Program-made: the position numbers and the translations under genes
From: Candidatus Nomurabacteria bacterium GW2011_GWE1_32_28
GTDB lineage: Bacteria; Patescibacteriota; Minisyncoccia; Phycocordibacterales; UBA9973
Assembly: GCA_000989515.1 (NCBI GenBank)
Contig: LBOM01000003.1
Location: 111,833 to 175,832, forward strand
Length of the DNA: 64,000 bases
Direction of reading: 5' to 3'
Notes under the pieces: generated by a model
What the model was told of the DNA's origin: nothing
Seen by the model: only the letters and a program-made list of their open reading frames with translations
The model's database searches: none
Shown here: positions 4,003 to 49,912 of the stretch, one piece after another
How positions within the stretch are numbered: the stretch's first letter is position 1
Layout: every line of letters starts with the position of its first letter

Positions 4003-4075
4003 GCGCCCGTAGCTCAGCTGGTAGAGCAGATCCCTTTTAAGGATAAGGTCCTCGGTTCGATCCCGAGCGGGCGCA
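4003..4075 (+). tRNA. tRNA-Lys (anticodon UUU)
   Basis: Cloverleaf: acceptor GCGCCCG/CGGGCGC, D-arm AGCTCAGCTGGTAGAGC, anticodon loop CTTTTAA, T-arm CTCGGTTCGATCCCGAG, discriminator A. No CCA is encoded. Confidence 0.85.
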
Positions 4076-5269: not shown

Positions 5270-7762
5270 CTACTTAACTTCTCCAAAATTATTTCCAAAA
5301 CCAGAATGTACTATCAATGGAATGTCTGTTTTATATTGCAAATAAGATCTCTGAAGAACAGATTCCATTGCATTTTTAATAATTATCTCGACATTTTCAA
5401 GAATATCTTCTTCTACTTCATAAACTAATTCATCGTGTATCTGAAGAACAAGATGGGCTTTCTCTAAAAATCCTTCCCTCTTTAAATCTTCTTCAGAATA
5501 TCTTATCGCGAGTTTTATTATATCAGCAGTCGCTGTACCCTGAATTGGTGCATTGATGGCTGTGCGTTCAGCCATATTTTTTAAAAATGGAATTCTAGAA
5601 TTTATATTAGGAAAGTATCTTCTTCTATTAAACAATGTCTCTGTATATAAATGTCTTGTCGCAAAAATCTTTACACTTTCTAAATAATTTTTTACACCAG
5701 AAAATTGATTAAAATAATTATCATAAAATTTCTGTGCTTCTTCACGAGTACCACCTAAGCTCTTGCGTAAAGATGAAACACCCATACCATAAATAATTCC
5801 AAAATTTATTACTTTTGCCTTACGGCGCATCTCACCATCTACTTTTTCAAGTGGAACACCAAAAACAAAAGAAGCTACTCCAGAATGAATGTCTTTACCA
5901 TCACAAAATATTTGTGTCATTTTTGGGTCTCCCGAGAGCATAGCAGCGACACGAAGCTCTATTTGACTATAATCAAAAGTCAAAAGTTTATATCCTTTTC
6001 CTGCTATAAAACCATTTCGTATCTTTTTACCTAATTCTGTTTTAATAGGTAAATTTTGCAAATTTGGATCTTGAGAAGAAAATCTCCCCGTTGTTGTGCC
6101 GTTTTGTAAAAATTTTGCATGCAAACGATCATCTTCATCTGTCATTTTAGGAATTACATCAATATAAGTAGAAAGTAATTTCTGTAATTCTCTATAAGCT
6201 AATATTTCTTTTATTATTGGATTATTTTCTTCAAGTTCTTCTAATACAGAAACTTTTGTAGAAAAAGACCCACTCGCATTTTTCTTTTTGCTTGATTTCA
6301 TTCCCATTTTATCAAACAAAACTTCTCCTAATTGTTTTGGGGAATTTATGTTAAATTCTAAACCAGACATCTTATATATCTTTTGAGTTAATTTATCTAA
6401 TTCCTTGTGATACTCTTTTGATAAATTTTCAAAATATTTCTTATCTATCAGAATTCCATGGTCCTGCATTTTTTTTACCATGGGTATTATAGGTTTTTCT
6501 ATTTCTTTATATATTTTTTCTAATCCCTTATCTTTTAATTCTTTAAACACATATTCTTTTGCTATTTCAAAAGAATCAGTATTTGCATAATGCAAAACAT
6601 CATCTAGTGTTGGATTTGTAATATCTGAATTTATAATCCAAAGTGCAATTGCTGTTTCTTGTAATTTGTTTTTATCTATAATAATTGGCTTTTGGTGGAC
6701 GTGCTCAGAGGAGTATTCGCTACTACCAGATAAATCTTGCCCTTCCAAGATAGAGTGCGAACGACGGCGAGCATCGTCGCCAGAAGCCAAATTATTATTT
6801 TCATCAAAAAAACTTTTTAATCTTGAATATAGACTTCTAAATTCAAACACTGAAAACATATTTTCAATTTTTTTCAAATCTGCATTCTCCCAAAAAGTTT
6901 TTTCTTGTAATTTAAAATCAACAGGTGCATCAGTTCTTATTTTTGCTAATGTTTTTGAAAATAAAGCTTCTTCTTCGTTATCTTTCAAAAGTTGTATTAT
7001 ACGATCTGTAAGTCCTAATTTTTTAAATTCTAATTCGTAATTCGTAATTCGTAATTGTCTATAAATTTCTTCTATTGTTCCAAAATTAACAATCAAATTC
7101 GTCGCCGTCTTCTCACCAATTCCTTTAATACCAATAATATTATCAGATGGATCTCCTCTCAATCCTTTATAGTCTGGCAACAACTTCGGTTTAAAACCAA
7201 ACCTATCAATCATTTTTTCTTCATCATATAAAATAGTGTCATTAATCCCCTTCTTTAAAGTATAAACTTGTACTTTTTTACCATCAACTAATTGCATCGT
7301 GTCCATATCTCCTGATGCAATAATTATATTTATATCTGGAATTTTTTTTCCGCCAGAGGCGGATCCGCCTCTGGCGGAAATTTTCTCTACAATCGTACCT
7401 AATACATCATCAGCCTCAAAGCCTGGCGCATCATAAATAGGAATATTAAATGCATCAAAGATTTGTCGAGAGTTTTTTAGTTGTAAAATTAAAGCATCTT
7501 CAGTTTTTGCTCTCCCTAATTTATACCCATCGTATGCTTCATGCCTAAAAGTCTTTTGCGGTAAATCATAACAAGCAACAATATAATCTGGTTTTAGATC
7601 AGTAATTATTTTCATTAACATACTAGAAAGACCATACAATGCCCCAGTAGGCTCACCCTTAGAAGACAAAAACTCAGGCAATGCATGATAAGCACGATGT
7701 ATTATCGCATGAGCATCTAATAATACTAATGTTTTTGATAAATTTTTATTATTTTTGACCAT
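5270..7762 (-). CDS. polA: DNA polymerase I (5'-3' exonuclease plus polymerase domains; 3'-5' exo domain reduced)
   Basis: 830 aa. N-terminal 5' nuclease (LVLLDAHAIIHRAYHAL...) and C-terminal pol motifs (DYSQIELR, RRKAKVINFGIIYGM, QIHDELVYEV). It carries three foreign in-frame segments: a perfect palindrome at 7347-7380, a family-A element at 6705-6775 and a heptad repeat at 7026-7057. Confidence 0.95.
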   Translation of the reverse strand: MVKNNKNLSKTLVLLDAHAIIHRAYHALPEFLSSKGEPTGALYGLSSMLMKIITDLKPDYIVACYDLPQKTFRHEAYDGYKLGRAKTEDALILQLKNSRQIFDAFNIPIYDAPGFEADDVLGTIVEKISARGGSASGGKKIPDINIIIASGDMDTMQLVDGKKVQVYTLKKGINDTILYDEEKMIDRFGFKPKLLPDYKGLRGDPSDNIIGIKGIGEKTATNLIVNFGTIEEIYRQLRITNYELEFKKLGLTDRIIQLLKDNEEEALFSKTLAKIRTDAPVDFKLQEKTFWENADLKKIENMFSVFEFRSLYSRLKSFFDENNNLASGDDARRRSHSILEGQDLSGSSEYSSEHVHQKPIIIDKNKLQETAIALWIINSDITNPTLDDVLHYANTDSFEIAKEYVFKELKDKGLEKIYKEIEKPIIPMVKKMQDHGILIDKKYFENLSKEYHKELDKLTQKIYKMSGLEFNINSPKQLGEVLFDKMGMKSSKKKNASGSFSTKVSVLEELEENNPIIKEILAYRELQKLLSTYIDVIPKMTDEDDRLHAKFLQNGTTTGRFSSQDPNLQNLPIKTELGKKIRNGFIAGKGYKLLTFDYSQIELRVAAMLSGDPKMTQIFCDGKDIHSGVASFVFGVPLEKVDGEMRRKAKVINFGIIYGMGVSSLRKSLGGTREEAQKFYDNYFNQFSGVKNYLESVKIFATRHLYTETLFNRRRYFPNINSRIPFLKNMAERTAINAPIQGTATADIIKLAIRYSEEDLKREGFLEKAHLVLQIHDELVYEVEEDILENVEIIIKNAMESVLQRSYLQYKTDIPLIVHSGFGNNFGEVK
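6705..6775 (-). repeat. Family-A GC-rich inserted element, in-frame in polA (encodes ...[25 protein letters not shown]...)
   Basis: Near-identical to 435-500 (uvrA), in the same orientation relative to the coding strand. Confidence 0.7.
7026..7057 (-). repeat. (AATTCGT)n heptad tandem repeat, in-frame in polA (encodes LRITNYELEF)
   Basis: aattctaattcgtaattcgtaattcgtaattg. It belongs to the dispersed heptad family seen in intergenic regions and other genes across the window. Confidence 0.8.
7347..7380 (-). repeat. 34-bp perfect GC-rich palindrome inside polA (encodes ISARGGSASGGKKI)
   Basis: TTTCCGCCAGAGGCGGATCCGCCTCTGGCGGAAA is a perfect inverted repeat centred on GGATCC. Confidence 0.8.
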
Positions 7763-12438: not shown

Positions 12439-12443
12439 GAACA

Positions 12444-12476
12444 ATTACGAATTATCAATTACGAATTACGAATTTA
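12444..12476. repeat. Heptad repeat (AATTACG orientation) between yebC and ruvC
   Basis: caattacgaattatcaattacgaattacgaatt followed by TAAAATATAC and the ruvC ATG 11 nt later. Confidence 0.8.
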
Positions 12477-20684: not shown

Positions 20685-21014
20685 ATGCTTTTAAAAAAAA
20701 ATAGAGTTGATAAAAGAGATATAGACCTTATTTTTAAAAAAGGAAATTTTATTAGTTTACCTAGTTTTACTTTTAAATTTATATTAAATAATAATAATTC
20801 TATCAAACCGCGTGTTTCTTTTATTGTATCTAAAAAAATAGTGAGACTCGCTGTTAGAAGAAACTCTTTAAGAAGAAGAGGTTATTCTGTTTTAAAAAAG
20901 TATATTAATCAATTCCCTCTTGGAATATTGGGTGTTTTTATTTTTAAAAAACCCCAGGAGAATATTTTAATAATCGAAAATGAAATTAAAGATACACTCA
21001 ATAAAATTAATTAA
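20685..21014 (+). CDS. rnpA: RNase P protein component
   Basis: 109 aa, basic. The FKF...RVSFIVSKKIVRLAVRRNSLRRR pattern (RNR motif region) is typical of RnpA. Confidence 0.8.
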   Translation: MLLKKNRVDKRDIDLIFKKGNFISLPSFTFKFILNNNNSIKPRVSFIVSKKIVRLAVRRNSLRRRGYSVLKKYINQFPLGILGVFIFKKPQENILIIENEIKDTLNKIN

Positions 21015-21228
21015 TTTTTATCAAAAGTTTTTATCACCTGTAATTACTGGGTTTTTGGATTATTTTGGATTATTAAAGAACAATTCATGTGTTTTTTATC
21101 CAACTTGCTCAGAATATACAAAAGAGGCTATAAAAAAGTATGGTATTTTGAAGGGCTCATGTCTTGGTTTTTTAAGAATTCTTCGTTGTCACCCATGGCA
21201 AAAGAACCACATAGATCAACTGAAATAA
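20980..21228 (+). CDS. yidD: Membrane protein insertion efficiency factor YidD
   Basis: FYQKFLSP...CVFYPTCSEYTKEAIKKYG...RILRCHPW is the YidD signature. The true start is probably an internal Met. Confidence 0.75.
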   Translation: MKLKIHSIKLINFYQKFLSPVITGFLDYFGLLKNNSCVFYPTCSEYTKEAIKKYGILKGSCLGFLRILRCHPWQKNHIDQLK

Positions 21229-21277
21229 TTAACAATTTCAAATTATGAATTATAAATTTAGAAATGTATTTGTATTT

Positions 21278-21312
21278 TAATTCGTAATTGATAATTCGTA
21301 ATTTGTAATTGA
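21278..21312. repeat. Heptad repeat between yidD and yidC (opposite orientation to the 12444 copy)
   Basis: tgtattttaattcgtaattgataattcgtaatttgtaattg, including the recurrent TGTATTTTAA flank. Confidence 0.8.
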
Positions 21313-21334
21313 ATCAATTTTCGTATAGAATAAG

Positions 21335-22066
21335 ATGATGTTAACTAATATTTGGGATACCATATTATATGGACCACTTTTAAATGCCTTGGCCTTTTTG
21401 GTTTCAATTATTCCTGGTGGTGATGTCGGTGTAGCTATTGTCATACTTACTCTTTTTGTTAAAACTATACTCTTTCCACTATCCCAGCGTTCTATTGAAA
21501 GCCAAATGAAGATGAATTTACTTGCCCCAGAACTTAAAAAAATAAAAGATAGTGGTAAAAGTAAAGAAGAACAAGCAAAACAAACTTTTGAATTATATAA
21601 GAATAATAAGACAAATCCTTTTTCTGGATGTCTTCTAGTTTTAATTCAAATTCCTATAATTTTTGCTCTTTATTATGTTTTTTTAAAAGGAATAAATCTT
21701 GAAAGTGGATTACTTTATTCGTTTATTAATCCACCAGAACATATAAATATGCTTTTTTTTGGTATTCTTGATATTGGTCAAAAAAGTATTGTTTTGGCTG
21801 TGCTTGCTGGTGTTTCTCAATATTTCCAGGCACGACTTATGCCTAAACCTGTCATTTCAGATGATAAAAATAGTTCTTTCCAAAATAATTTTGCCAAGAG
21901 TATGAGCACCCAAATGAAATATGTCTTTCCTTTTGTTATTGCATTTATTGCATACAGCATTTCTGGTGCGGTTGCATTATATTGGATTACGAGTAATATA
22001 TTTGCTGTAGGGCAACAGATGTATGCAAACAGAAAAAAGGAAATGGCACTTGAGGTTGTTAAATAA
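21335..22066 (+). CDS. yidC: Membrane protein insertase YidC (short form)
   Basis: 243 aa, multi-TM. The conserved hydrophilic-groove region is KQTFELYKNNKTNPFSGCLLVLIQIPIIFALY. Confidence 0.85.
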   Translation: MMLTNIWDTILYGPLLNALAFLVSIIPGGDVGVAIVILTLFVKTILFPLSQRSIESQMKMNLLAPELKKIKDSGKSKEEQAKQTFELYKNNKTNPFSGCLLVLIQIPIIFALYYVFLKGINLESGLLYSFINPPEHINMLFFGILDIGQKSIVLAVLAGVSQYFQARLMPKPVISDDKNSSFQNNFAKSMSTQMKYVFPFVIAFIAYSISGAVALYWITSNIFAVGQQMYANRKKEMALEVVK

Positions 22067-22070
22067 TATT

Positions 22071-22580
22071 ATGAATAAAAATGAAATTCAAAATTTAATA
22101 AAAGAACTTATAGAAAGGACCACAATATCTGTAAATAAAATTACCACAGATGAAGATAAGCCAGCCACTCTTCGTTCTGATCAAGACAATACTACGTGGT
22201 TTTCTGTGGAAGTAAATCAACCACATTATTTTTGGGATCGTGGAGGAGAAGCACTTTTTGCTATAAATCATTTAGTTCGCAGAATAATTGAAAACAAAAC
22301 TTCTCACAATGAAGAGTTAAACGAAAAACAACGTGGTCTTGGTATTCTGGTTGATGTTAATGGTTTTCAAAAGAAACGCATAGAGAATATTCATGCCACA
22401 GCACACATGATGGCAGAAAGAGCTAGATATTTTAAATCAAACATAGAGATTGATCCAATGCCAGCTTTTGAACGCAGGATAGTTCATGAATTTTTATCTG
22501 ACGCGACTGATTTGAAAACTGAATCACAAGGTGAGGGTTTTTCTCGTAGGGTAGTTATAAAGTACACGGGCTCAATTTAA
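22071..22580 (+). CDS. jag: Jag-like KH/R3H RNA-binding protein
   Basis: C-terminal R3H motif (RRIVHEFLSD...GEGFSRRVVIKY) in the canonical position after yidC. The start is taken at the ATG after the yidC stop. Confidence 0.75.
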   Translation: MNKNEIQNLIKELIERTTISVNKITTDEDKPATLRSDQDNTTWFSVEVNQPHYFWDRGGEALFAINHLVRRIIENKTSHNEELNEKQRGLGILVDVNGFQKKRIENIHATAHMMAERARYFKSNIEIDPMPAFERRIVHEFLSDATDLKTESQGEGFSRRVVIKYTGSI

Positions 22581-22650
22581 AATTACGAATTACGAATGAT
22601 CAATTGGGAATTCAAATTTAGGCATCTTTTTCAATTCGTAATTCGTAATT
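22581..22650. repeat. Inverted pair of heptad repeats forming a 17-bp-stem hairpin between convergent jag and the island's last gene
   Basis: AATTACGAATTACGAAT at 22581-22597 and ATTCGTAATTCGTAATT at 22634-22650 are perfect reverse complements, separated by 36 nt. Confidence 0.7.
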
Positions 22651-22682
22651 TGAAATTCTTAATTAATTAAAATAGATCTTAT

Positions 22683-24029
22683 TTATTTTGATTGTAGTTC
22701 CCAGAGATAAGAATCTTTTTTATTTATAAAAAATAGAAAATTTTCATCTTTATCTAATCCTAATTTTATACCATCTATCTCTTCCCCGTCCTCAACTGAA
22801 AGAGGGTCTATTATTTTTGTGGTAACTCCACTTTGAATATTTATTTTCCAGATTTCATCTGAGAAAGAAACTTCACCTTGATACCAAGAATCTGGATAAG
22901 TTAGATTATCTATATATTTAGGTACAGCACAATAAATAGTATCACTTTTGGATCCCCATGTACACTTTTCTGGTAGTGTCTTTAATCCGATCATATTATA
23001 ATCTCCTGTGCTTATATTAAAGACACTTAACGATAGGTTGTTGTCACCATAGAGAACTATTTCTCCGTTTGGGCTTGTTAAGGTAGTTAATCCATTTATT
23101 CCGCCCAATATTTTATCGAAGTCTTTTTTTTCTGTGTCTATTTTATACATATATCCAGGAACGTTGTATGAAGGTTTTGTTGTGACTGTAATTATTTTTT
23201 CATTAGGCCAGAAAGATAACCATTCTGTGAAAGATGAGTCAAATGCTTGAATTTTTGTATCTGATTGTAAAGATTGAATTATTCCAATTATATTATTTTC
23301 TACATTAAATAAATAAAATATTTTTTCTGTATTAGGAGAGATGCTTATATCAGAAACATTCTCTGGTAAAAATGAACCGTTTATTTCGTTCATTCCTATT
23401 GAATCTGCCCCTAAATATTCTTTTGGAAGAGTACCCATAAAAGTTTCTACTGTTTTATTATCTTTTTTAAAATATCTCATCATTATTGATTCTCCATTGT
23501 TTCCAAAAAAAGCATCATATACCTTAGGTATCATAGTAGAAGAGAATTTACGTTCATCTATTCTGTCTGCAAAAGTTTGATAAATATTTCCTGTAAATTT
23601 GTTTACATACCTTAATGCTGGTAAAAATTCTGTTGGTGGAGATATTGGTGTTGTTTCTACTTTTTCGATATTTGTTTTCTCTTCACCTGTATCGGTTGGT
23701 GTTGGGTTTGGATCTACTATGTTTTTAAATCTTTCTTTCGTAAATATTCCATAACCGGCTATTGGGAAGCTAGAAACCTTTTTTAATATTGAATTTTGAA
23801 TGTCTCCTTCTGATGTAGGTATATAACCAGAAACATCGACTGGTTGTGTTGTGTCTCCAGTGTTTGTATTTTTATTATTACCAAATGGTAAAAAATCTGA
23901 AAGGAAATTTATACTTTCTGTTACAACGCCACCTTGATTTGTTGGTTTATAAAAATAAAGAAATACAAAAGCACCGATTGTGATTATTAATAAAACTATT
24001 GTGAATAATATAATGTTTCTTTTTGACAT
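22683..24029 (-). CDS. Membrane-anchored secreted protein (N-terminal TM, Pro/Thr linker, beta-rich domain)
   Basis: 448 aa. Single N-terminal TM (ILFTIVLLIITIGAFVFLYFY), then a PTPTDTGEE linker. This is the first gene of the minus-strand island. Confidence 0.55.
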   Translation of the reverse strand: MSKRNIILFTIVLLIITIGAFVFLYFYKPTNQGGVVTESINFLSDFLPFGNNKNTNTGDTTQPVDVSGYIPTSEGDIQNSILKKVSSFPIAGYGIFTKERFKNIVDPNPTPTDTGEEKTNIEKVETTPISPPTEFLPALRYVNKFTGNIYQTFADRIDERKFSSTMIPKVYDAFFGNNGESIMMRYFKKDNKTVETFMGTLPKEYLGADSIGMNEINGSFLPENVSDISISPNTEKIFYLFNVENNIIGIIQSLQSDTKIQAFDSSFTEWLSFWPNEKIITVTTKPSYNVPGYMYKIDTEKKDFDKILGGINGLTTLTSPNGEIVLYGDNNLSLSVFNISTGDYNMIGLKTLPEKCTWGSKSDTIYCAVPKYIDNLTYPDSWYQGEVSFSDEIWKINIQSGVTTKIIDPLSVEDGEEIDGIKLGLDKDENFLFFINKKDSYLWELQSK

Positions 24030-25422: not shown

Positions 25423-25484
25423 ATTCGTAATTAATTTTTTTGTATTTTAAATTCGTAATTCGTAATTGATAATTCGTAATTGAT
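25423..25484. repeat. Heptad repeat element upstream of the 24041-25417 gene
   Basis: ttttgtattttaaattcgtaattcgtaattgataattcgtaattgattt. In gene sense it reads ...AATTACGAATTACGAATTTAAAATACAAAA, resembling TTACGA-17nt-TAAAAT. Confidence 0.8.
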
Positions 25485-26493: not shown

Positions 26494-26596
26494 CTCGTAA
26501 TTAATTTAATTATATCATTCGTAATTAATAATTCGTAATTGACCTCCCCTTTTTCTTTTTTAAATTCGTAATTCGTAATTGTTAATTCGTAATTGA
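26494..26596. repeat. Extended heptad repeat tract (~100 nt)
   Basis: aaactcgtaattaatttaattatatcattcgtaattaataattcgtaattgacc...taaattcgtaattcgtaattgttaattcgtaattgatt. Confidence 0.8.
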
Positions 26597-26606
26597 TTAT
26601 ATATTA

Positions 26607-28445
26607 TTATTTTCCGTCTGCTTCTTCTAGGTCTTGTTTTGCTTTTTTTATGGACAAAATTTGAGAAGGATCAGATGTTATTATTTGGTCTTCTGTGTAG
26701 GAGGATATTATTTTTATAGCAACATGTTTTAATCCTGCAAAAAATATTCCTTCCCCTACCCCAGACTCTAAAAGAAGATATTTTTCTTCGTCGGTAAGAT
26801 TGAATGTCTTTTGAAGAATATCTATGGTTGTTGGAGACTGTTTTAAAAGAATCTGTATGGAAGAGTTTGTTATTATAGGAATACCATAAGGAGATTTCAT
26901 AAAGTCTGCTGCATCTTGTGTAATAGTAGAAAGACCTAAATAATATTTTCTACCTCTTTTTGCCATAGAGTATAAGAAAGAAGCTGTATCTTCTGATTTC
27001 ATCATCCACCATGCTTCATCTACAACCAACAGGCGTTTTTTTAGATTTTTTCGTATTGTTATCCATATATAGTGCATGACTATATACATTGCAACTGGTT
27101 TTAATTCGTCTTCCATGTCTCTCACAGAAAATACTACAAATTTCTTATTTATGTCTACATTTGATGGTCTATTTAAAAAAGTAGACCAAGTGCCTTTTGT
27201 ATATTTTACCAATCTTTGCATAATAGAATCACTTCCCTCCATACCAGCTAGCACCATCTCAAAATCTGAAAGGAGCGGTGGTTCTATATTTGAAAAATTT
27301 GAATCAGGGGTTATGTCTTTCATTGCATAGGTCTCTGAAATAGCACGGTCAACCATTGAGTCTTCTTCTGGTGAGAGTCCTCCAAGCATTAGTCTAAAGA
27401 GCCCTACTAAGTTTATAATGTTTGACCTTAGTACATCTTCATTTGATTCGTCTTCACGTGGTATTGGTAAATCAAAAGGATTAATGTGGTGGTCTGAAGA
27501 AAGAGAAATATTGAAATACCTTCCACCGACAGCTTCAGCCAAATATTCATATTCCCTTTCAGGGTCTATTACTATTACATCTACGTCAAACATTAAAGAT
27601 CTTAATATTTCTAATTTTGTTGCATAACTTTTTCCTGAACCAGATTTTGCAAATGTTACAGAGTTGTAGTTTTCTAATGAAAATCTATCGAAAATAACTA
27701 AACTTGAATTGTGTCTATTTACACCATACAGTATTCCATTATCAGAAGTTAGATCAAAGGAAACAAATGGAAATACACTAGAAAGAGGCTCTGAATTTAA
27801 TTTCTGGTGAATATTTAGTAGATCATTACCGAGAGGCATTACACTTTTAAAACCTTCTTCTTGTTGGAAAATTGCTGGTTTAATATATATTAATTTTGAT
27901 TCTAGTATTGATTTTATTTCATTTTCAATTTTAAAAAGTTCGAGTTCATTGTCAGCATAGACTGTTATATAAATACTAACGTCAAACATTTTTTGTTGTG
28001 CTTGAATCAGGTTATCTCTCAAGCCTTCTAGGTCTTGGTATGCAGTATCAAGCATTGGGTCACGAACCATACCTTTCTTTTCACGTACATTTATTTGACT
28101 TTGTACCTCAGCTACCTTTTTTTGAAATTGTCGTAGTGCTAAAGATGTATCTATTGGGTGAATAAATATTGAAACATCAAAAACTTTATCTAGATTAATT
28201 ATTGGAGAAAACCAATTGTCACTTAAGAATCTAGGATAAGAAATAATAAAAAAAGTACGAGCTATCTTATCACCCAGATTAATAGATTTTGACTCTATTT
28301 TTAATGCCGAAGGGGCGACTATGTCTTGGAGCTCTAATTTTGCTGATTCATAGATTTCTTCTGGTAGTACTGCTAAAACTGAAGCATTTGCTCCTTTGTT
28401 TGTATCTGTATTCTTTTTTCCTAATAAGTTATCTAAAAATGACAT
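26607..28445 (-). CDS. VirB4/TrbE-family type IV secretion ATPase (C-terminal ATPase part)
   Basis: 612 aa. Walker A VTFAKSGSGKSYATKL and VirB4-type Walker B RLLVVDEAWWMM. Overall VirB4/CagE architecture. Confidence 0.8.
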   Translation of the reverse strand: MSFLDNLLGKKNTDTNKGANASVLAVLPEEIYESAKLELQDIVAPSALKIESKSINLGDKIARTFFIISYPRFLSDNWFSPIINLDKVFDVSIFIHPIDTSLALRQFQKKVAEVQSQINVREKKGMVRDPMLDTAYQDLEGLRDNLIQAQQKMFDVSIYITVYADNELELFKIENEIKSILESKLIYIKPAIFQQEEGFKSVMPLGNDLLNIHQKLNSEPLSSVFPFVSFDLTSDNGILYGVNRHNSSLVIFDRFSLENYNSVTFAKSGSGKSYATKLEILRSLMFDVDVIVIDPEREYEYLAEAVGGRYFNISLSSDHHINPFDLPIPREDESNEDVLRSNIINLVGLFRLMLGGLSPEEDSMVDRAISETYAMKDITPDSNFSNIEPPLLSDFEMVLAGMEGSDSIMQRLVKYTKGTWSTFLNRPSNVDINKKFVVFSVRDMEDELKPVAMYIVMHYIWITIRKNLKKRLLVVDEAWWMMKSEDTASFLYSMAKRGRKYYLGLSTITQDAADFMKSPYGIPIITNSSIQILLKQSPTTIDILQKTFNLTDEEKYLLLESGVGEGIFFAGLKHVAIKIISSYTEDQIITSDPSQILSIKKAKQDLEEADGK

Positions 28446-28448
28446 CTT

Positions 28449-28476
28449 CTTAATTCATAGTTCCTAATTGTTAATT
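28449..28476. repeat. Heptad-family repeat separating the two VirB4 parts
   Basis: ttaattcatagttcctaattgttaattcttaattga occupies the 32-nt gap between the stop of the N-terminal part (28478) and the ATG of the ATPase part (28445). The two parts are in different frames. Confidence 0.7.
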
Positions 28477-28477
28477 C

Positions 28478-29143
28478 TTAATTGATTTCAATTTTTCCCT
28501 CTAATTCTCCAGGGTTAAAAACTTTGTAGAATACTTCTACTACTTCTTCTGTTCCCAGCTGTGCTGATTTTATACCACAACGTGAAAGACCTTGTTGTAT
28601 TACACTCACTCTTTGTTCTAGTTGTGATCTTTTTTCTTCAAAATCAAGTTGGTTTTTCATTTCTTCTTCCTTTTTATTTCTTTTTGAAAACAAATTTGTA
28701 AACATTCCAGATTTTGGACCGAGGTTTGTGTGAGTATAAGGAATCACAACAAAGAAATTCTTTGTCATTATACTTACAGACTCCGTAAAGTTTTTTATAA
28801 ACTCCATATATTCTTTTGTTTGTAATTTGAGTAATGGTTCACTTTGTACTTTCATCCTATTTTCTAAAAGCAAGAGATATCTTCTGATGTCTAATTTTCT
28901 TGATTGTATGGATATTTGTACAGAAAAATCTAATGTGTTTAAAAAGTTTTGAAATTGAAGTATCGTTGCTCTTTGTTCATCGTCTGATTTTAAAGACAAA
29001 TTTACTGAATTTGCAAGTATAATTGCCCTGATTCCTCCATCTTTTAAAACGACAATACCATCACGGACTTCCTTGATTGGTACAAATTCTTGAGTTGGTT
29101 TTGCATTTATCATTTTTTTAAGTCTAGGACATCTAAGCTCCAA
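28478..29143 (-). CDS. VirB4 N-terminal domain-like protein (split from the ATPase part, or a genuine two-gene arrangement)
   Basis: 221 aa. PIKEVRDGIVVLKDGGIRAIILANSVNLSLKSDDEQRA matches the conserved VirB4 N-terminal region. Together with the next ORF it totals 833 aa, a typical VirB4 length. Confidence 0.55.
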   Translation of the reverse strand: MELRCPRLKKMINAKPTQEFVPIKEVRDGIVVLKDGGIRAIILANSVNLSLKSDDEQRATILQFQNFLNTLDFSVQISIQSRKLDIRRYLLLLENRMKVQSEPLLKLQTKEYMEFIKNFTESVSIMTKNFFVVIPYTHTNLGPKSGMFTNLFSKRNKKEEEMKNQLDFEEKRSQLEQRVSVIQQGLSRCGIKSAQLGTEEVVEVFYKVFNPGELEGKIEIN

Positions 29144-29520
29144 GCTAAATCTCTTAATTTGCTTCCACTTAATTGTCTTCTATCATTCGTAATTATCTTC
29201 TCTTTATTCGTAATTCGTAATTGTTCATTCGTAATTTTATTCATATGTCTTTTCCAGATATAAAGTTTGTCTTGCATTGCGAATTTCAATCCAGATTCAA
29301 TCATATCAATGAAAGGTTTACCATTTGGATGATAAAATGTGAGCAAGGCTGATAATCCTGCAATTATTAGTATTGGTATGGCACCGAGCCATATTCCTAA
29401 TGATTTAAATAATATATAACATATTCCAGCACCACCTGCTAAATAGGCAAATTCTTTAAAAGTGAATGGGCCAAAAATTTTGTCTTCTATTTCTAAAAAT
29501 TGTGGAACCTTGAATTGCAT
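29110..29520 (-). CDS. VirB3-like small membrane protein, with C-terminus extended by translated heptad repeat
   Basis: 136 aa. Two TM helices (EFAYLAGGAGICYILFKSLGIWLGAIPILIIAGLSALLTF) lie directly upstream of VirB4. The C-terminal ...ITNEQLRITNKEKIITND is encoded by AATTCGT repeats and overlaps the next gene. Confidence 0.4.
   Translation of the reverse strand: MQFKVPQFLEIEDKIFGPFTFKEFAYLAGGAGICYILFKSLGIWLGAIPILIIAGLSALLTFYHPNGKPFIDMIESGLKFAMQDKLYIWKRHMNKITNEQLRITNKEKIITNDRRQLSGSKLRDLAWSLDVLDLKK
29184..29237. repeat. Heptad repeat inside the 3' end of the VirB3-like ORF
   Basis: cattcgtaattatcttctctttattcgtaattcgtaattgttcattcgtaatttt. Confidence 0.8.
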
Positions 29521-29581
29521 ACTGGGTAGTTAAAAGTTTATAAAGTTTGTAAAGTCATAAAGTTAACTGATGAAGTTTAAA
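29521..29581. repeat. Second repeat family: (AAAGTTTAT / CATAAAGTT)-type nonamer tandem
   Basis: aaagtttataaagtttgtaaagtcataaagttaactgatgaagtttaaaag. Related tracts lie at 29950-29990 (actttatgaactttatgaactttatgaac) and 34190-34230. Confidence 0.7.
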
Positions 29582-29601
29582 AGATAATTAAGTTAATAAT
29601 A

Positions 29602-29949
29602 TTAATCTAGAGACTTGATAAAACCTGATAATAACTTAGAAATCTCTATGCTTAAATTATACATTATTTTGAAATCTTTTTCATGGATATACTTTAATTC
29701 TAATCCCAAATCTAACATAGATCTAGTTTCTCCAGTAGATCCTTTTGCTATAAAAAGAAAGTTTCTTAATTCTTTATTTGTTCTTCTTTCAAATCCTTCT
29801 GCAATATTGTTCATTATCGAGACAGAGGCTCTTTCTATTTGATTTTTAAAACTGAAATCTTTACATGTTTTGAATACACTATAGACAAGAAGTGTTAATT
29901 CCTTTCCTTTTTTCCAAGCTATGATATCTTCAAATTTTTCTATTTTCAT
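29602..29949 (-). CDS. Four-helix-bundle protein of the 23S rRNA IVS / Avd family
   Basis: 115 aa. ASVSIMNNIAEGFERRTNKELRNFLFIAKGSTGE matches the PF05635-type signature (ASxSIxxNIAEG...F..A.GS). Confidence 0.65.
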   Translation of the reverse strand: MKIEKFEDIIAWKKGKELTLLVYSVFKTCKDFSFKNQIERASVSIMNNIAEGFERRTNKELRNFLFIAKGSTGETRSMLDLGLELKYIHEKDFKIMYNLSIEISKLLSGFIKSLD

Positions 29950-29990
29950 TTGCTTTCTACTTTATGAACTTTATGAACTTTATGAACTTT
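29950..29990. repeat. Nonamer tandem repeat (ACTTTATGA)x3-4 directly upstream of the Avd-like gene
   Basis: ctactttatgaactttatgaactttatgaacttttt. Confidence 0.75.
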
Positions 29991-30716
29991 TTACTCTATG
30001 GGCATTCTATAAGGGTCAACTCGTGTAAGTTCAGGTTTATTTCTTTCAGAAATTTTAGTAACATTTGGAATTGAATGATTCGTCTCAACTGTTGGAATAT
30101 TAAAAGATCCTGAAAGTTTTTGTGACAATAATGAAGGTGTATCTTTCTTTTTTTCTTCTAAATTTGTAATTGGTAATTGACCATTCGTAATTGATTTATC
30201 TTTTCCATCTGTTATTTCTAATTCGAAATTTGTAATTCCTAATTGTTTTTTATCTTTATCTTCATTCGTAATTCGTAATTCGTAATTGTTAATTGATTGT
30301 GTGTTTTCAATATGTTTTAACATTTCCTCCCTGCTTTCTATTAAATTTTCATTTATGTTTTCTGTGTTTTTGTTAGTTTTTTTATTTTTTTCAACACGCA
30401 TTACAAGTTCTTCGCGGATTTTTCTAAAAACTTTTTCGTTTATTTCATTTACTAGTTCATCTATTTGAGCTTTTGGTAGATTCATTCTAGTCTCCAATTC
30501 TTTTGGATAGTTTTCTGTATTAGTGAGCCCACAAAGCAATAATTCTGTTTCAATTTCAAGATTTTCTAGTTGTTCAAAGCTATATCCTTTTTCTTCTCGC
30601 ATTTTTATTATTATTGATTTCCAATCAACTGCATCAATAGCTTCTATCGTTTCTTTTGGCAATTCTTCTCTAGCTTTATTTATTTTTATTTGTAGCAAAT
30701 CTATTGTTGTATTCAT
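29991..30716 (-). CDS. Hypothetical acidic protein with a C-terminal segment encoded by heptad repeats
   Basis: 241 aa. C-terminal NNYELRITNEDKDKKQLGITNFELEITDGKDKSITNGQLPITNLEEK is translated from AATTCGT-family repeats at 30161-30296. Confidence 0.5.
   Translation of the reverse strand: MNTTIDLLQIKINKAREELPKETIEAIDAVDWKSIIIKMREEKGYSFEQLENLEIETELLLCGLTNTENYPKELETRMNLPKAQIDELVNEINEKVFRKIREELVMRVEKNKKTNKNTENINENLIESREEMLKHIENTQSINNYELRITNEDKDKKQLGITNFELEITDGKDKSITNGQLPITNLEEKKKDTPSLLSQKLSGSFNIPTVETNHSIPNVTKISERNKPELTRVDPYRMPIE
30161..30296. repeat. Three patches of heptad-family repeats (AATTNNT units) inside the 29991-30716 ORF
   Basis: aaatttgtaattggtaattgaccattcgtaattga ... tctaattcgaaatttgtaattcctaattg ... 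cattcgtaattcgtaattcgtaattgttaattgattg. Confidence 0.8.
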
Positions 30717-33310: not shown

Positions 33311-33356
33311 TCTGTATTTTAAATTCGTAATTCGTAATTGTTAATTCGTAATTGAC
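33311..33356. repeat. Heptad element with conserved flank TTCTGTATTTTAAATTCGTAATTCGTAATTGTTAATTCGTAATTGAC
   Basis: The 50-nt string is identical to 34236-34282 and closely related to 40769-40800, 26556-26596 and 25441-25470. It lies ~45 nt upstream (gene sense) of the 30741-33272 start. Confidence 0.85.
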
Positions 33357-34235: not shown

Positions 34236-34282
34236 TTCTGTATTTTAAATTCGTAATTCGTAATTGTTAATTCGTAATTGAC
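34236..34282. repeat. Heptad element (identical copy of 33311-33356)
   Basis: ttctgtattttaaattcgtaattcgtaattgttaattcgtaattgactta. Confidence 0.85.
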
Positions 34283-41226: not shown

Positions 41227-42174
41227 CTACTCTTTTTTGTTGATATCTATGATTTTTGTGAGATTGATCCAATCTGAGAGAGTTAAATTTTCTGCTCTTT
41301 TGTTTCCAAGAGATTCTAACTTAATCATCGAGTCAAGGGCGGAGGCAATTCCTCCGCCCTTGAGAAATGTTTTTAAATTTGAGGAGAGTTTTTTTCTTTT
41401 ATGGGCAAAGCCAGTATGTATTATTTCCCAAAATTTCTCTTCATTTAGTTTATTTTTGATAAAAATTTTTCTTGAGATGTTTTTTATAGCGATTATTGCG
41501 GAATCTACCTTTGGGGCAGGAGAAAAATACCTTGAAGGCACCTTCATAATTATTTTAGGGCTCCCATATGCCTTTACTGATATGGATAAAATACTTTCCT
41601 TGCCGTCGCGTGCGACTATTCTCTTTGCTACTTCGTTTTGTACCATCAAGATCATCATCTCTGGTTGTTCTTTTTCTGAAAGAAACTTTTTCAATATGGC
41701 ACCAGTTATATTATAGGGAATATTAGCGATAATTTTATAAGAAAAATAATGAGGAATATTATTTTTAAAACCACACATATTTCCCTGCTGGGAAATTGCT
41801 ATGCTCGGCTCGACAGCCTGCGCAATGCTTTTAAAAACAACATTCCTCATTATTTTTCTAATTTGTAATTTGTAATTTGTAATTTGTAATTTTAGTATGT
41901 CATCATTTATTAAAATTAATTTCTGGTTTTTTATTTCTTCAGAGAATTTAATTTTTAGAAGTTCATAAAGTTCGTAGTCTTTTTCTATGGCTACAACACA
42001 GCCTGCTTTTTCTAAAAGTTTTTCTGTTAAGGCACCCTTTCCGGGTCCTATTTCTAGTATAATATCTCGAGAAGAAACTTCTCCAGCCTCTACTATTTTT
42101 TTTAATGCGATAGTAGATTTTAAGAAATTTTGACCTAATGATTTTTTTGCTTTGTGTATTTTCTGCATTTTCAA
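41227..42174 (-). CDS. rsmA: 16S rRNA (adenine1518/1519-N6)-dimethyltransferase
   Basis: SLGQNFL...ILEIGPGKGALTEKL... is the KsgA family signature. It has two foreign in-frame segments: a palindrome at 41333-41363 (encodes LKGGGIASAL) and an (AATTTGT)n repeat at 41858-41892 (encodes LKLQITNYKLQI). Confidence 0.9.
   Translation of the reverse strand: MKMQKIHKAKKSLGQNFLKSTIALKKIVEAGEVSSRDIILEIGPGKGALTEKLLEKAGCVVAIEKDYELYELLKIKFSEEIKNQKLILINDDILKLQITNYKLQIRKIMRNVVFKSIAQAVEPSIAISQQGNMCGFKNNIPHYFSYKIIANIPYNITGAILKKFLSEKEQPEMMILMVQNEVAKRIVARDGKESILSISVKAYGSPKIIMKVPSRYFSPAPKVDSAIIAIKNISRKIFIKNKLNEEKFWEIIHTGFAHKRKKLSSNLKTFLKGGGIASALDSMIKLESLGNKRAENLTLSDWINLTKIIDINKKE
41333..41363 (-). repeat. 31-bp GC-rich palindrome inside ksgA
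   Basis: TCAAGGGCGGAGG-CAATT-CCTCCGCCCTTGA is a perfect 13-bp inverted repeat. Confidence 0.8.
41858..41892 (-). repeat. (AATTTGT)5 heptad tandem repeat, in-frame in ksgA
   Basis: ctaatttgtaatttgtaatttgtaatttgtaatttt. Confidence 0.8.
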
Positions 42175-42206
42175 TTCGTAATTCGTAATTCGTAATTGTT
42201 AATTTG
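42173..42206. repeat. Heptad repeat between uvrD end and ksgA start
   Basis: caattcgtaattcgtaattcgtaattgttaatttg begins immediately after the ksgA start codon. Confidence 0.8.
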
Positions 42207-42210
42207 TAGT

Positions 42211-44244
42211 TTATATATAAATTGTTTTTATTCCTCCTTCCTCACCTTCTTTCTCTAGTATATCACTTGGAATATCTGAAATAAATTCAGATGGAGCATT
42301 TATTTGTCTAGAGCCAAATATTGTACGGAAATTTGCAAATGATAAAAATAATTTTTCACGAGCTCTTGTGATTGCTACGTAAAAAAGTCTACGTTCTTCT
42401 TCTTTGTCTTCTCCATTTTTACTCTCATTATTTCTTCTGTGTGGAAAAAGTCCATCTTCTAATCCTGTAGTAAAAATATATTTAAATTCAAGACCTTTTG
42501 ATGCATGCACTGTCATTAATTTGACAGCATTTGTTTCTGTTTTTTTATTTTCAGCAATCATCATTGAGTCTTGATCTGAGGCTAATGACGCATCTTCTAA
42601 AAGTTTCTCTATTCCCAATCCGTCCTTTGAATTATCATATTTTAGAGCCAATGTTACTAATTCTTTTATGTTTTCTAATCTTTCCATGTCTTCTTCTGTG
42701 CCGGTTGAAAGCTCCGTCTCTATTCCAGATTTTTTTACTGCGAACCTAATGACTTCAGATGCTTTTGAACTTTTAATTTTTTCTTTTATTTCTTCTAATA
42801 TTTTATAAAAATTATCTATCTTTATTTTTACTTTTATTGGTAGATTTTCCTTTTCTCCAGAAAAAAGTTTTATCAATGTTACTTTCCCTATTCCCCTAAC
42901 AGGGAAATTTATTATTCTTTTTATTTCAGAAAGACTTTCAGGATTTAGTGCGCAACGTAAATAAGCGAGAGTATCTTTTATTTCTTTTCTTTCAAAAAAT
43001 TTAACACCCAAAACTTGGTATGGAATATTGTATCGTAGCAATGCTTCTTCTAGAGCGCGGGATTGAAAATTTGCACGATAGAGGATGGCAACGTCAGACA
43101 AAATTATGGATGCTACCTTAGAAGGGTCGCTGTCTAGGTCTGTTGACCTAGCGCTGCCTCTCGGCTCGTCAGCCTGCGAGACACCCTTCAAAGGTACATC
43201 CGTAATTTTGTCTAAAAGTTCTAAAATTTTTGTTGCGACGAAATCAGCTTCATCATTTTCATCTAATGCTTCATATAGTCCTATCTTCTCTCCAGTTTTA
43301 TTTTTGGTAAATAAATTTTTATCAGGCCTGTATACATTCTTTTTTATTACCTCATTTGCTGCCTCTAATATGTTTTGAGTTGATCTATAATTCTCTTCAA
43401 GTAATATTATTTTTGTTTCTTTTCCATAATCTTTTTCAAAACTTAAAATATTTTTTAAATTTGCTCCACGCCAAGAATAAATATTTTGATCGGCATCTCC
43501 AACTACACAAATATTTTTATTTTTTTCAGAAAGCAAACGTGACATCAAATATTGTACTTCATTTGTGTCTTGATATTCATCTATGTGTATGTATTCCCAT
43601 TTTTCTTGATAGATTTTTCTTATTTCTTCTTTTTCTTTTAATAGTTTTGTTGCTTTTAAAAGTAGATCATCAAAATCTAAAGAATTCTCTTTAGCTTTTT
43701 TCTTTTCATATAGGGCCCAGACTTGAGCTACTAGTTTACTTAAATAGTCATACACTTTTTCCTCATAATCTTTTAAATGTGTGAATTTACCTTTTTCTCT
43801 ACTTATTATATTTTTTATTTTTCTAGGATCATATTGTTTTGGATCTATTCCTAATTCTTTTAGTGATTCTTTGATCAATGTAGTGGAATCAGAATCATCT
43901 AATATTGTAAAATGTCTAGTAAGACCCAAAATATGGGCATTTTCTTTGATTATATAGACTCCTAGTGAGTGAAAAGTAGACACAAAAGGAACAGAATCTT
44001 GACCTTTTATATGTTTTTTTATTTCTGAAATTATTCGTTCACGCATTTCTTTTGCTGCCTTGTTTGTGAATGTCACAGCTAAGATTTTATCTGGAGATAT
44101 TCCATTTTTAATTAAATTCAATATTCTATGTGTTATTGTCTTCGTTTTTCCTGCACCAGCTCCAGCGACAATCAAAATAGGACCATTCATATGAATGGCA
44201 GCTTCTCTTTGCATAGCATTTAGTCCTTTTAAGTGTTCTTCCAT
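42211..44244 (-). CDS. uvrD: UvrD/PcrA-family ATP-dependent DNA helicase
   Basis: LNAMQREAAIHMNGPILIVAGAGAGKTKTITHRI... with helicase motifs I-VI. The start is taken at MEEHLKG (ATG 44242-44244) immediately after TATAAT. The ORF-track start is at 44268. It has a family-B GC-rich insertion at 43124-43188. Confidence 0.9.
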   Translation of the reverse strand: MEEHLKGLNAMQREAAIHMNGPILIVAGAGAGKTKTITHRILNLIKNGISPDKILAVTFTNKAAKEMRERIISEIKKHIKGQDSVPFVSTFHSLGVYIIKENAHILGLTRHFTILDDSDSTTLIKESLKELGIDPKQYDPRKIKNIISREKGKFTHLKDYEEKVYDYLSKLVAQVWALYEKKKAKENSLDFDDLLLKATKLLKEKEEIRKIYQEKWEYIHIDEYQDTNEVQYLMSRLLSEKNKNICVVGDADQNIYSWRGANLKNILSFEKDYGKETKIILLEENYRSTQNILEAANEVIKKNVYRPDKNLFTKNKTGEKIGLYEALDENDEADFVATKILELLDKITDVPLKGVSQADEPRGSARSTDLDSDPSKVASIILSDVAILYRANFQSRALEEALLRYNIPYQVLGVKFFERKEIKDTLAYLRCALNPESLSEIKRIINFPVRGIGKVTLIKLFSGEKENLPIKVKIKIDNFYKILEEIKEKIKSSKASEVIRFAVKKSGIETELSTGTEEDMERLENIKELVTLALKYDNSKDGLGIEKLLEDASLASDQDSMMIAENKKTETNAVKLMTVHASKGLEFKYIFTTGLEDGLFPHRRNNESKNGEDKEEERRLFYVAITRAREKLFLSFANFRTIFGSRQINAPSEFISDIPSDILEKEGEEGGIKTIYI
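43124..43188 (-). repeat. Family-B GC-rich element, in-frame in uvrD (encodes ...ADEPRGSARSTDLDSDPSK...)
   Basis: gggtcgctgtctaggtctgttgacctagcgctgcctctcggctcgtcagcctgcgagacaccc matches the reverse complement of the uvrB insertion at 2224-2298, apart from the internal mini-hairpin. Confidence 0.7.
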
Positions 44245-48648: not shown

Positions 48649-48719
48649 TGCGGGATGGGAGAATCGAACTCCCAACCTCAGTTTGGAAAACTGACGTTTT
48701 ACCATTAAACTAATCCCGC
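48649..48719 (-). tRNA. tRNA-Gly (anticodon UCC)
   Basis: Minus-strand cloverleaf GCGGGAT..GTTTAATGGTAAAAC..TCAGTTTTCCAAACTGA..GGGAGTTCGATTCTCCC..ATCCCGC-A. No CCA. Confidence 0.85.
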
Positions 48720-48765
48720 TTTCGCTAAAGCTTCAGCGAGGCAGACCCGCAACGGCTTTAACTGG

Positions 48766-48836
48766 TCGGGCTGCTGGGAATCGAACCCAGTCTAAACGCT
48801 CCCAAAGCGCTTGTACTACCGGTATACTACAGCCCG
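48766..48836 (-). tRNA. tRNA-Pro (anticodon UGG)
   Basis: Minus-strand cloverleaf CGGGCTG..anticodon stem AGCGC/GCGTT with loop TTTGGGA..CTGGGTTCGATTCCCAG..CAGCCCG-A. Confidence 0.8.
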
Positions 48837-49636: not shown

Positions 49637-49707
49637 TGCGGCTAGGGAGAATCGAACTCCCGTCTCATCCTTGGCAAGGACGTGTTCTACCACTAAACCA
49701 TAACCGC
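49637..49707 (-). tRNA. tRNA-Gly (anticodon GCC)
   Basis: Minus-strand cloverleaf GCGGTTA..GTTTAGTGGTAGAAC..CGTCCTTGCCAAGGATG..GGGAGTTCGATTCTCCC..TAGCCGC-A. Confidence 0.85.
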
Positions 49708-49840
49708 TTTTTTAAAAAAAATAAATATAATTTATATTTTTAGATTATATTCTATTATAATATTTTAATTAAACTATTGCAATTTTTTTGTGGAATTTTA
49801 ATAAAAGTGTATAATTATATTATTATTAAATAATAAAAAA

Positions 49841-49912
49841 GCACCCGTGGTGAAATGGATATCATAACTGCCTTCGAAGCAGTCGTTCCAGGTTCGACCC
49901 CTGGCGGGTGCA
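49841..49912 (+). tRNA. tRNA-Arg (anticodon UCG)
   Basis: GCACCCG..GTGAAATGGATATCAT..ACTGCCTTCGAAGCAGT..CCAGGTTCGACCCCTGG..CGGGTGC-A. No CCA. It ends 10 nt before the cca start codon. Confidence 0.85.

Follow-up and report, generated by a model that had tools for sequence, protein, structure and literature searches.

The two-gene VirB4 of a Candidatus Nomurabacteria secretion locus and the heptad element in its spacer

Gene layout and the position of the break

On the minus strand of a 64,000-nt stretch of Candidatus Nomurabacteria bacterium GW2011_GWE1_32_28 (contig LBOM01000003.1; the whole stretch is called the window here), the counterpart of VirB4, the motor ATPase of type IV secretion systems (T4SSs), is spread over two adjacent open reading frames (ORFs). 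The operon runs from a PrgI/VirB3-like gene through a TrsD-like gene (the N-ORF) and a 32-nt gap to the VirB4 ATPase gene (the C-ORF), and because 32 leaves a remainder of 2 when divided by three, the two ORFs lie in different frames. An earlier note on this DNA had described a VirB4 homologue split by a heptad-repeat insertion between its N-terminal domain and its ATPase, and had offered pseudogenisation, phase-variable switching or a functional two-polypeptide VirB4 as explanations. The features of the locus are as follows.

29110..29520, minus strand: PrgI/VirB3-like small membrane protein, 136 amino acids (aa); Pfam PrgI 33.4 bits, cut-off 27; conserved in relatives
28478..29113, minus strand: TrsD-like gene (N-ORF), 211 aa; assigned from VirB4 profiles, alignment to the fused homologue P0227, fold and the ratio of nonsynonymous to synonymous substitution rates (dN/dS)
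28446..28477, minus strand: intergenic spacer, 32 nt; part of a decayed copy of the 34-bp heptad element
26607..28445, minus strand: VirB4 ATPase gene (C-ORF), 612 aa from its ATG; assigned from NCBIfam, Pfam, the structure 4AG5 and dN/dS
26563..26596, minus strand: perfect copy of the 34-bp heptad element (0 mismatches) directly downstream of virB4; reference for the decayed copy in the gap

The N-ORF exists on the minus strand as the note had it, but its start has to be moved. The open-reading-frame listing extends it over 28478..29143, 221 aa when read from an upstream TTG, whereas the start is most likely the ATG at 29113, giving 211 aa. This ATG overlaps the stop codon of the PrgI/VirB3-like gene as ATGA, and the homologues begin at an equivalent M..AK.TQEF that matches it. 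A full N-terminal domain and an ATPase domain are not found together in one polypeptide at this locus; a stop codon, the 32-nt gap and the change of frame intervene.

The C-ORF carries the Walker A (AKSGSGKSY) and Walker B (LLVVDEAW) motifs that had been read from it, and it passes the Pfam thresholds for P-loop_TraG (87.7 bits, cut-off 25.8) and AAA_10 (40.6 bits, cut-off 27.5). It also passes NCBIfam NF045971, a VirB4-like model of the CD1110 family (378.5 bits, cut-off 325), covering profile positions 182-733 of 752, so that the N-terminal ~180 positions are missing from the C-ORF. The match to the VirB4_plasma model spans positions 284-892 (1.4e-80). The crystal structure of a VirB4 C-terminal domain (PDB 4AG5) aligns with residues 234-590 (E 4e-38), residues 261-565 align to TrwK 446-741, and the alignment to the fused patescibacterial VirB4 P0227 covers residues 230-796 at 55% identity. 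The C-ORF is a predicted VirB4/TraC-family T4SS ATPase comprising what remains of the N-terminal domain, followed by the ATPase domain with its Walker A/B motifs; on its own it lacks the first ~215 residues that are found in all single-chain VirB4 proteins.

These residues have their counterpart in the N-ORF. The peptide PIKEVRDGIVVLKDGGIRAIILANSVNLSLKSDDEQRA, from which a conserved VirB4 N-terminal region had been recognised, does lie in it. The NCBIfam VirB4_plasma profile matches at positions 102-281 (6e-11), the CD1110-family VirB4 model at positions 2-120, and the 797-aa P0227 at residues 5-218 (38% identity, 2e-46). Precomputed public annotation assigns Pfam PF26593 (TraC-like), which was seen in such annotations only; the local Pfam scan gave a sub-threshold DUF4268 as its sole match. 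A phmmer search of the N-ORF against PDB sequences returned no match even at E = 10, and the homology to VirB4 is therefore shown through profiles and the predicted fold. In the AlphaFold2 model (mean predicted local distance difference test, pLDDT, 77; predicted template-modelling score, pTM, 0.64) the 13 best PDB matches are exclusively TrwK/VirB4 chains of R388, with probabilities of 0.85-1.0 and a template-modelling score (TM) of ~0.5; all remaining structural matches in the PDB have probabilities <=0.57. The N-ORF, lying between the virB3-like and virB4 genes, codes for a small stand-alone homologue of the VirB4 N-terminus, and by these profiles and models this product is predicted to supply, as a separate polypeptide, ~215 residues from the start of VirB4's N-terminal domain.

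Together the two ORFs are collinear with the VirB4_plasma profile (102-281 and 284-892) and with P0227 (5-218 and 230-796). When this fused homologue is modelled, the structure aligns with TrwK over its full length (E 1.7e-23, TM 0.60), and pLDDT is <50 at residues 212-217 of the model, where the N-ORF protein of the window ends. Because of these alignments and the low local confidence, the break is placed in a predicted linker within the N-terminal domain, at about residue 215, and not between the N-terminal and ATPase domains as had been supposed; the C-ORF keeps ~230 residues ahead of the ATPase. Like the single-chain VirB4 proteins (TrwK of R388, PDB 7O41/8RTD, and P0227), the two ORFs thus cover the whole protein collinearly; unlike them, the chain of the window is broken at ~residue 215, inside the N-terminal domain.

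Conservation of the two genes and the age of the spacer

A scan of relatives with one genome per species yielded 80 loci with N-ORF identities of 76-89%. In every one of them a separate C gene follows the stop of the N gene, so that the comparison of homologous loci proposed in the earlier note found the split in 80 of 80 related species. The ATG of the C gene aligns unambiguously to residue 1 in 71 loci. Gaps between the genes range from an 8-nt overlap to 130 nt overall and from 1 to 130 nt in the 71 ATG-aligned loci, where they measure <=7 nt in 34, 8-30 nt in 15 and >30 nt in 22; the majority of the related species have no repeat in the gap. Protein searches agree: each of the best 120 matches of the N-ORF is 211-222 aa long, and stand-alone proteins make up 149 of its 150 best 50%-identity cluster representatives, down to ~35% identity. 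The N gene has a dN/dS of 0.041 and the C gene one of 0.026 when they are compared with L087, a relative of 95% identity, at a synonymous divergence (dS) of ~0.84. Both genes are separate, conserved and under strong purifying selection across the Nomurabacteria/Paceibacteria clade.

Fused forms of ~790 aa prevail in a Colwellbacteria-type clade of Patescibacteria, where they account for 118 of the 120 best matches of P0227. Two proteins of ~600 aa, P0289 and P0385, raised the possibility of independent fissions in this fused clade. P0289 was dropped as evidence of fission because its "C-only" form stems from a scaffold gap, a run of N at 1213-1667 of L092, in the N-terminal part.

The observation of a 32-nt heptad-like gap (28446-28477) between ORFs in different frames holds. 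The stretch 28452-28485 (minus strand), made up of spacer sequence and the final 8 nt of the ORF upstream, matches the 34-mer TCAATTACGAATTAACAATTACGAATTACGAATT, which is dispersed genome-wide, with 4 mismatches. Compared with the relatives, the last two codons of the N gene, its stop and the spacer are replaced in the window by ATCAATTAAGAATTAACAATTAGGAACTATGAATTAAGAAG, and the TAA stop of the TrsD-like gene is supplied by element sequence. The nearest relatives have TATT (4 nt; L087, 95% protein identity) and AATAT (5 nt; L088, 90%) at this place, without any repeat. Since both are already split, the repeat entered a pre-existing spacer. By this comparison the gap is a lineage-specific, decayed copy of the dispersed 34-bp element that landed between two existing genes; the split is older than the repeat, and the spacer repeat neither creates it nor switches it. 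The claim that a heptad-repeat insertion split virB4 does not survive, with the nearest relatives split and most related species free of a repeat in the gap. The most plausible sequence of events is that a 34-bp element of AATTACG units inserted into a 4-5-nt spacer after divergence from the 95%-identical relative, replaced the final codons and stop of the TrsD-like gene, and then decayed.

The five heptads of the gap are all different (ATCAATT, AAGAATT, AACAATT, AGGAACT and ATGAATT), all three CG cores are lost from this copy, and it has no -10-like tail. As a side observation, three of its four mismatches fall on the C of one CG core each (C to A, C to G and C to T), a pattern with a chance of ~7e-4 at random positions by hand calculation; the TAA with which the TrsD-like gene ends arises from the first of the three.

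A probable two-polypeptide VirB4 and its alternatives

The combination of a TrsD-like and a VirB4 gene is already known, and there is nothing new in the split itself, because pairs of TrsD and VirB4 are reported from Patescibacteria. In this context, Quinonero-Coronel et al. (2025, PMC12102498) counted 2,272 homologues of TrsD in Patescibacteria, found an association with VirB4 for 1,664 of these, stated the homology of TrsD to the VirB4 N-terminus, and listed a TrsD homologue as essential in S. epibionticum. The text of that paper, as far as searched, does not discuss fused versus split forms or the exact split point. The main text of Guglielmini 2014 (PMC4027160), consulted for the TrsD-VirB4 homology, does not contain the word TrsD. 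The window shares with the published system its lineage (Paceibacteria/Nomurabacteria), its components (a PrgI/VirB3 homologue, a TrsD-like protein and VirB4) and an origin-proximal context; it differs in nothing essential and adds a lineage-specific, 32-nt heptad-derived spacer. The T4SS block lies amid origin-proximal housekeeping genes, with YidC (60KD_IMP) and Jag (R3H) within 20685-22580 (yidC/jag at 21335-22580) and KsgA at 41227-42168. The presence of yidC/jag and ksgA fits the proximity of patescibacterial T4SSs to origin-proximal genes given in PMC12102498. The fused-form relatives L092 and L093 have rnpA-yidC-jag-dnaA adjoining virB4.

A second precedent comes from the staphylococcal plasmids pGO1/pSK41 with their TrsD/TraD and TrsE/TraE proteins. 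On pSK41 trsD (227 aa) follows a VirB3-like gene (135 aa), and after a gap of 14 nt comes a VirB4-like gene (672 aa). Because residue 50 of the C-ORF aligns with residue 44 of TrsE, the break lies at the same place; the gene order is the same and the C protein starts at an equivalent residue. What differs is the very low sequence similarity of the N proteins, and the pGO1/pSK41 system is plasmid-borne and conjugative with a relaxase, whereas that of the window is chromosomal. The same split is found on a Pontibacillus megaplasmid; the genes are fused on C. botulinum plasmids and Staphylococcus pKM01.

The locus very probably encodes the VirB4 motor ATPase of a patescibacterial (monoderm, MPF_FATA-like) T4SS in its normal form with two genes, acting as two polypeptides. 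This is the option of the earlier note that gained support, from the 80 of 80 species, dN/dS of ~0.03-0.04, the collinearity with fused VirB4 and the published TrsD and VirB4 pairs. In R388, the N-terminal domains of VirB4 connect the protomers of dimers, embed in the membrane and contact VirB3 and VirB8 (PMC12857230). In the window, the 211-aa TrsD-like protein would fold independently, as its stand-alone model (pTM 0.64) suggests, and would dock non-covalently onto the 612-aa VirB4, completing the N-terminal domain beside PrgI/VirB3. The spacing of 1-7 nt in most relatives suggests translational coupling, and because the spacers are so short the two proteins could be made in roughly equal amounts; the 32-nt insert of the window may loosen this coupling between trsD and virB4.

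Some of the comparisons weigh against this interpretation. The structural matches of the N-ORF model are moderate (TM ~0.5, E 5e-3 or weaker). The N-ORF scores 23.2 bits (E 5.1e-5) against the curated NCBIfam model NF041427 (TrsD/TraD), which has a cut-off of 200, and hhalign with pSK41 TrsD gives a weak match (E 1.4e-3, probability 17%), collinear over 163 columns. Given the distance to that cut-off and the hhalign value, the sequence comparisons indicate that the N-ORF is a remote TrsD/TraD homologue and not a member by the NF041427 threshold.

The TrsD-like protein could instead be an independent accessory factor, for example a regulator or an assembly chaperone, which descends from the VirB4 N-terminus and no longer completes the domain. 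It is less conserved than the ATPase (76-89% versus 77-95% identity), many of its homologues carry additional C-terminal extensions and reach 300-440 aa, and by the account of PMC12102498 the TrsD homologues of Gracilibacteria are not associated with virB4 and TrsD has no assigned function. We nevertheless consider this unlikely, given the exact collinearity with fused proteins across a break in a linker, the constant position between virB3 and virB4, the split point shared with pSK41, and a C-ORF that lacks the ~215 residues universal in single-chain VirB4.

Recoding, in which a programmed frameshift or stop read-through gives a single fused VirB4, might be imagined for genes that are adjacent on the same strand and have fused homologues. 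It is argued against, and made highly improbable, by the free variation of gap length, of frame offset (0/1/2 = 19/26/26 in the 71 loci) and of the N-gene stop codon (TAA 63, TAG 12 and TGA 5 in the 80 loci); no conserved slippery or structured sequence was seen among the related loci, and every C gene has its own conserved ATG start.

A phase-variable ON/OFF switch, with slipped-strand changes of heptad number fusing and separating the ORFs, draws on the 7-nt periodicity of the gap and on a unit length not divisible by 3. No two of the five units are alike, so there is no perfect tract able to slip, and the gap holds stops in both relevant frames. When all deletions or duplications of 7, 14, 21 or 28 nt across the junction were simulated, that is changes by one to four units, no continuous ORF arose; the ORFs are joined only when the whole insert and the stop are lost, by deletions of 26, 29, 32, 35 nt and so on. 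The identical small protein is encoded on eleven recorded contigs, and six of these, from different samples, were compared with the window (NCBI GCA_003542535.1, JGI 3300001242 and four Logan run assemblies). Over 2-6.6 kb, spacer included, they match it at 100% identity and show no polymorphism of tract length. With relatives that lack repeats split in the same way, such a switch is highly improbable.

Pseudogenisation would mean that the repeat broke a single virB4 and that the locus is decaying. Frames that differ across a repeat-like sequence and the fused ~790-aa versions in other Patescibacteria speak for it, but both ORFs are full length with conserved starts, the frames are intact in 80 species, mostly without a repeat, and selection is not relaxed in either part. 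Because the split is conserved in 80 loci, the homologues stand alone and dN/dS is low, a pseudogene can be set aside with near certainty; the nearest relatives, moreover, are already split with gaps of 4-5 nt. An assembly or sequencing indel in a really continuous gene, which the earlier note had named as the outcome that would overturn its reading, has nothing in its favour beyond the a priori possibility in metagenome-derived sequence and is exceedingly improbable, as the NCBI and JGI assemblies and four from Logan, of different runs, have an identical junction, the same architecture recurs across species and one indel cannot remove the in-frame stops.

A functional two-polypeptide VirB4 has consequences for annotation and experiment. 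Adjacent genes annotated as "hypothetical protein" and "short VirB4" in Patescibacteria and Bacillota would form one functional unit, and to flag them as phase-variable loci or as pseudogenes with a frameshift would be a mistake. The natural break point in a flexible linker at ~residue 215, as in TrsD/TrsE of pSK41, can guide the design of expression constructs and is useful for asking what role the first VirB4 subdomain has. Knowing which subunits really make up the T4SS is important, since the system is reportedly essential to a cultivated patescibacterium in its epibiotic lifestyle.

The dispersed heptad element and neighbouring repeats

The element from which the spacer derives occurs throughout the window. 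The 34-mer TCAATTACGAATTAACAATTACGAATTACGAATT, built of 7-nt units, has 15 copies with <=6 mismatches, compared with 0 in 100 Markov-shuffled sequences, and its core 10-mer AATTACGAAT occurs 46 times where 0.23 are expected. Because the family is absent from the shuffled sequences and the 10-mer is so far above expectation, the heptad-like gap is not due to chance. The element lies in most intergenic spacers from 21.2 to 42.2 kb, always in the orientation of the flanking genes, and its sense strand is free of stops in all three frames. Copies are also found in-frame inside genes. The copies and element-coded stretches, with the host gene named where there is one, are:

26563-26596, 33322-33355 and 34248-34281: the three perfect 34-mer copies
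12441-12474, 21279-21312, 22633-22666, 25450-25483 and 42173-42213: other copies
57619-57652, in the PNPase gene (56200-58344, plus strand): an exact 11-aa insert, MESITNEQLRI, relative to PDB 5YJJ
41861-41891, in the KsgA gene (41227-42168, minus strand): an insert of ~34 aa relative to 6IFS, starting with the heptad-coded KLQITNYKLQI
29185-29236 (copy 29205-29238), minus strand: variable C-terminal linker of PrgI, partly element-coded
30162-30287 (copy region 30161-30296), in-frame in ORF 29991-30716
7033-7056 (copy 7025-7058), in-frame in ORF 5270-7762

Among the related loci, 14 of 80 have the core 10-mer AATTACGAAT; the nearest relatives lack it. The Rfam search of the window gave only transfer RNAs (tRNAs), so that the repeat is not accounted for by a known RNA family. 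A reading of the element as a promoter (TTAACA, 17 nt, TAAAAT) was tried: two copies match at 10 of 12 positions, sites of this kind are not enriched in number over the AT-rich region as a whole (86 versus 88 expected), and the reading is unproven; the promoter-like -10 part is not present in the gap copy.

Similar behaviour has been described for the Rickettsia palindromic elements (PMC10969869). Like these and other intragenic MITEs (miniature transposable elements with inverted repeats), the heptad element is a short dispersed repeat that sits between genes and in-frame inside conserved genes. Unlike the Rickettsia elements it is ~34 bp and not ~150 bp long, consists of direct 7-nt units instead of a palindrome and is strictly oriented with the host gene; its mobility is putative. 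For the study of selfish DNA in reduced genomes the family offers a lead of its own, more interesting than the split.

Two facing AATTACG arrays, AATTACGAATTACG ... CGTAATTCGTAATT, lie at 22581-22664, between the convergent jag (plus strand) and ORF 22683-24029 (minus strand). From their sequence they could form a long imperfect hairpin and act as a bidirectional terminator.

The spacer between trsD and virB4 (~5630-5760 in loci L001-L080) is a recurrent landing site for small species-specific repeats. It contains AGCTAAA arrays in L001 and L014, inverted GCCTAGA arrays in L008, L017 and L041, and a perfect hairpin, GCTAGGCAAGACCTAAC.., in L029, L039, L040 and L051; ATAAAGT units are also among the arrays of other species. 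In L002 and L037 it holds a MITE-like element of ~116-130 nt with termini CCCGTTAGAAGC..GCGGTCGC.

Interspersed with the T4SS genes are members of the "23S rRNA intervening-sequence protein" family (PF05635), which have inverted short-repeat arrays on their flanks. The example in the window is:

29602-29949, minus strand: 23S rRNA intervening-sequence protein gene, with ATAAAGT-type flanks at ~29530-29585 and 29955-29992

A further gene of this kind, at 3926-4428 of L076, is flanked by AATTACG units. In 13 of 15 such genes the flanks score above the 95th percentile of 739 control ORFs for inverted repeats, and the same arrays occur without a gene in the trsD-virB4 spacers of L012, L026, L057, L070 and L075. 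This points to the arrays being a family of small cassettes and their solo derivatives. As a tentative and rather doubtful proposal, the 32-nt spacer might be a decayed copy of an undescribed, ~34-bp, 7-nt-periodic family of Nomurabacteria, sense-stop-free and gene-oriented, which resides in T4SS spacers and in-frame in essential genes (PNPase, KsgA and the PrgI linker). The intervening-sequence-protein cassettes would be the source of the arrays, and the trsD-virB4 spacer a recurrent landing site where insertions uncouple translation of the two VirB4 halves in some lineages.

Five tRNA genes lie in the window at the following positions, and four of them cluster at ~48.6-49.9 kb, the place at which the genes change from the minus to the plus orientation.

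4003-4075, 48649-48836 and 49637-49912: tRNA genes

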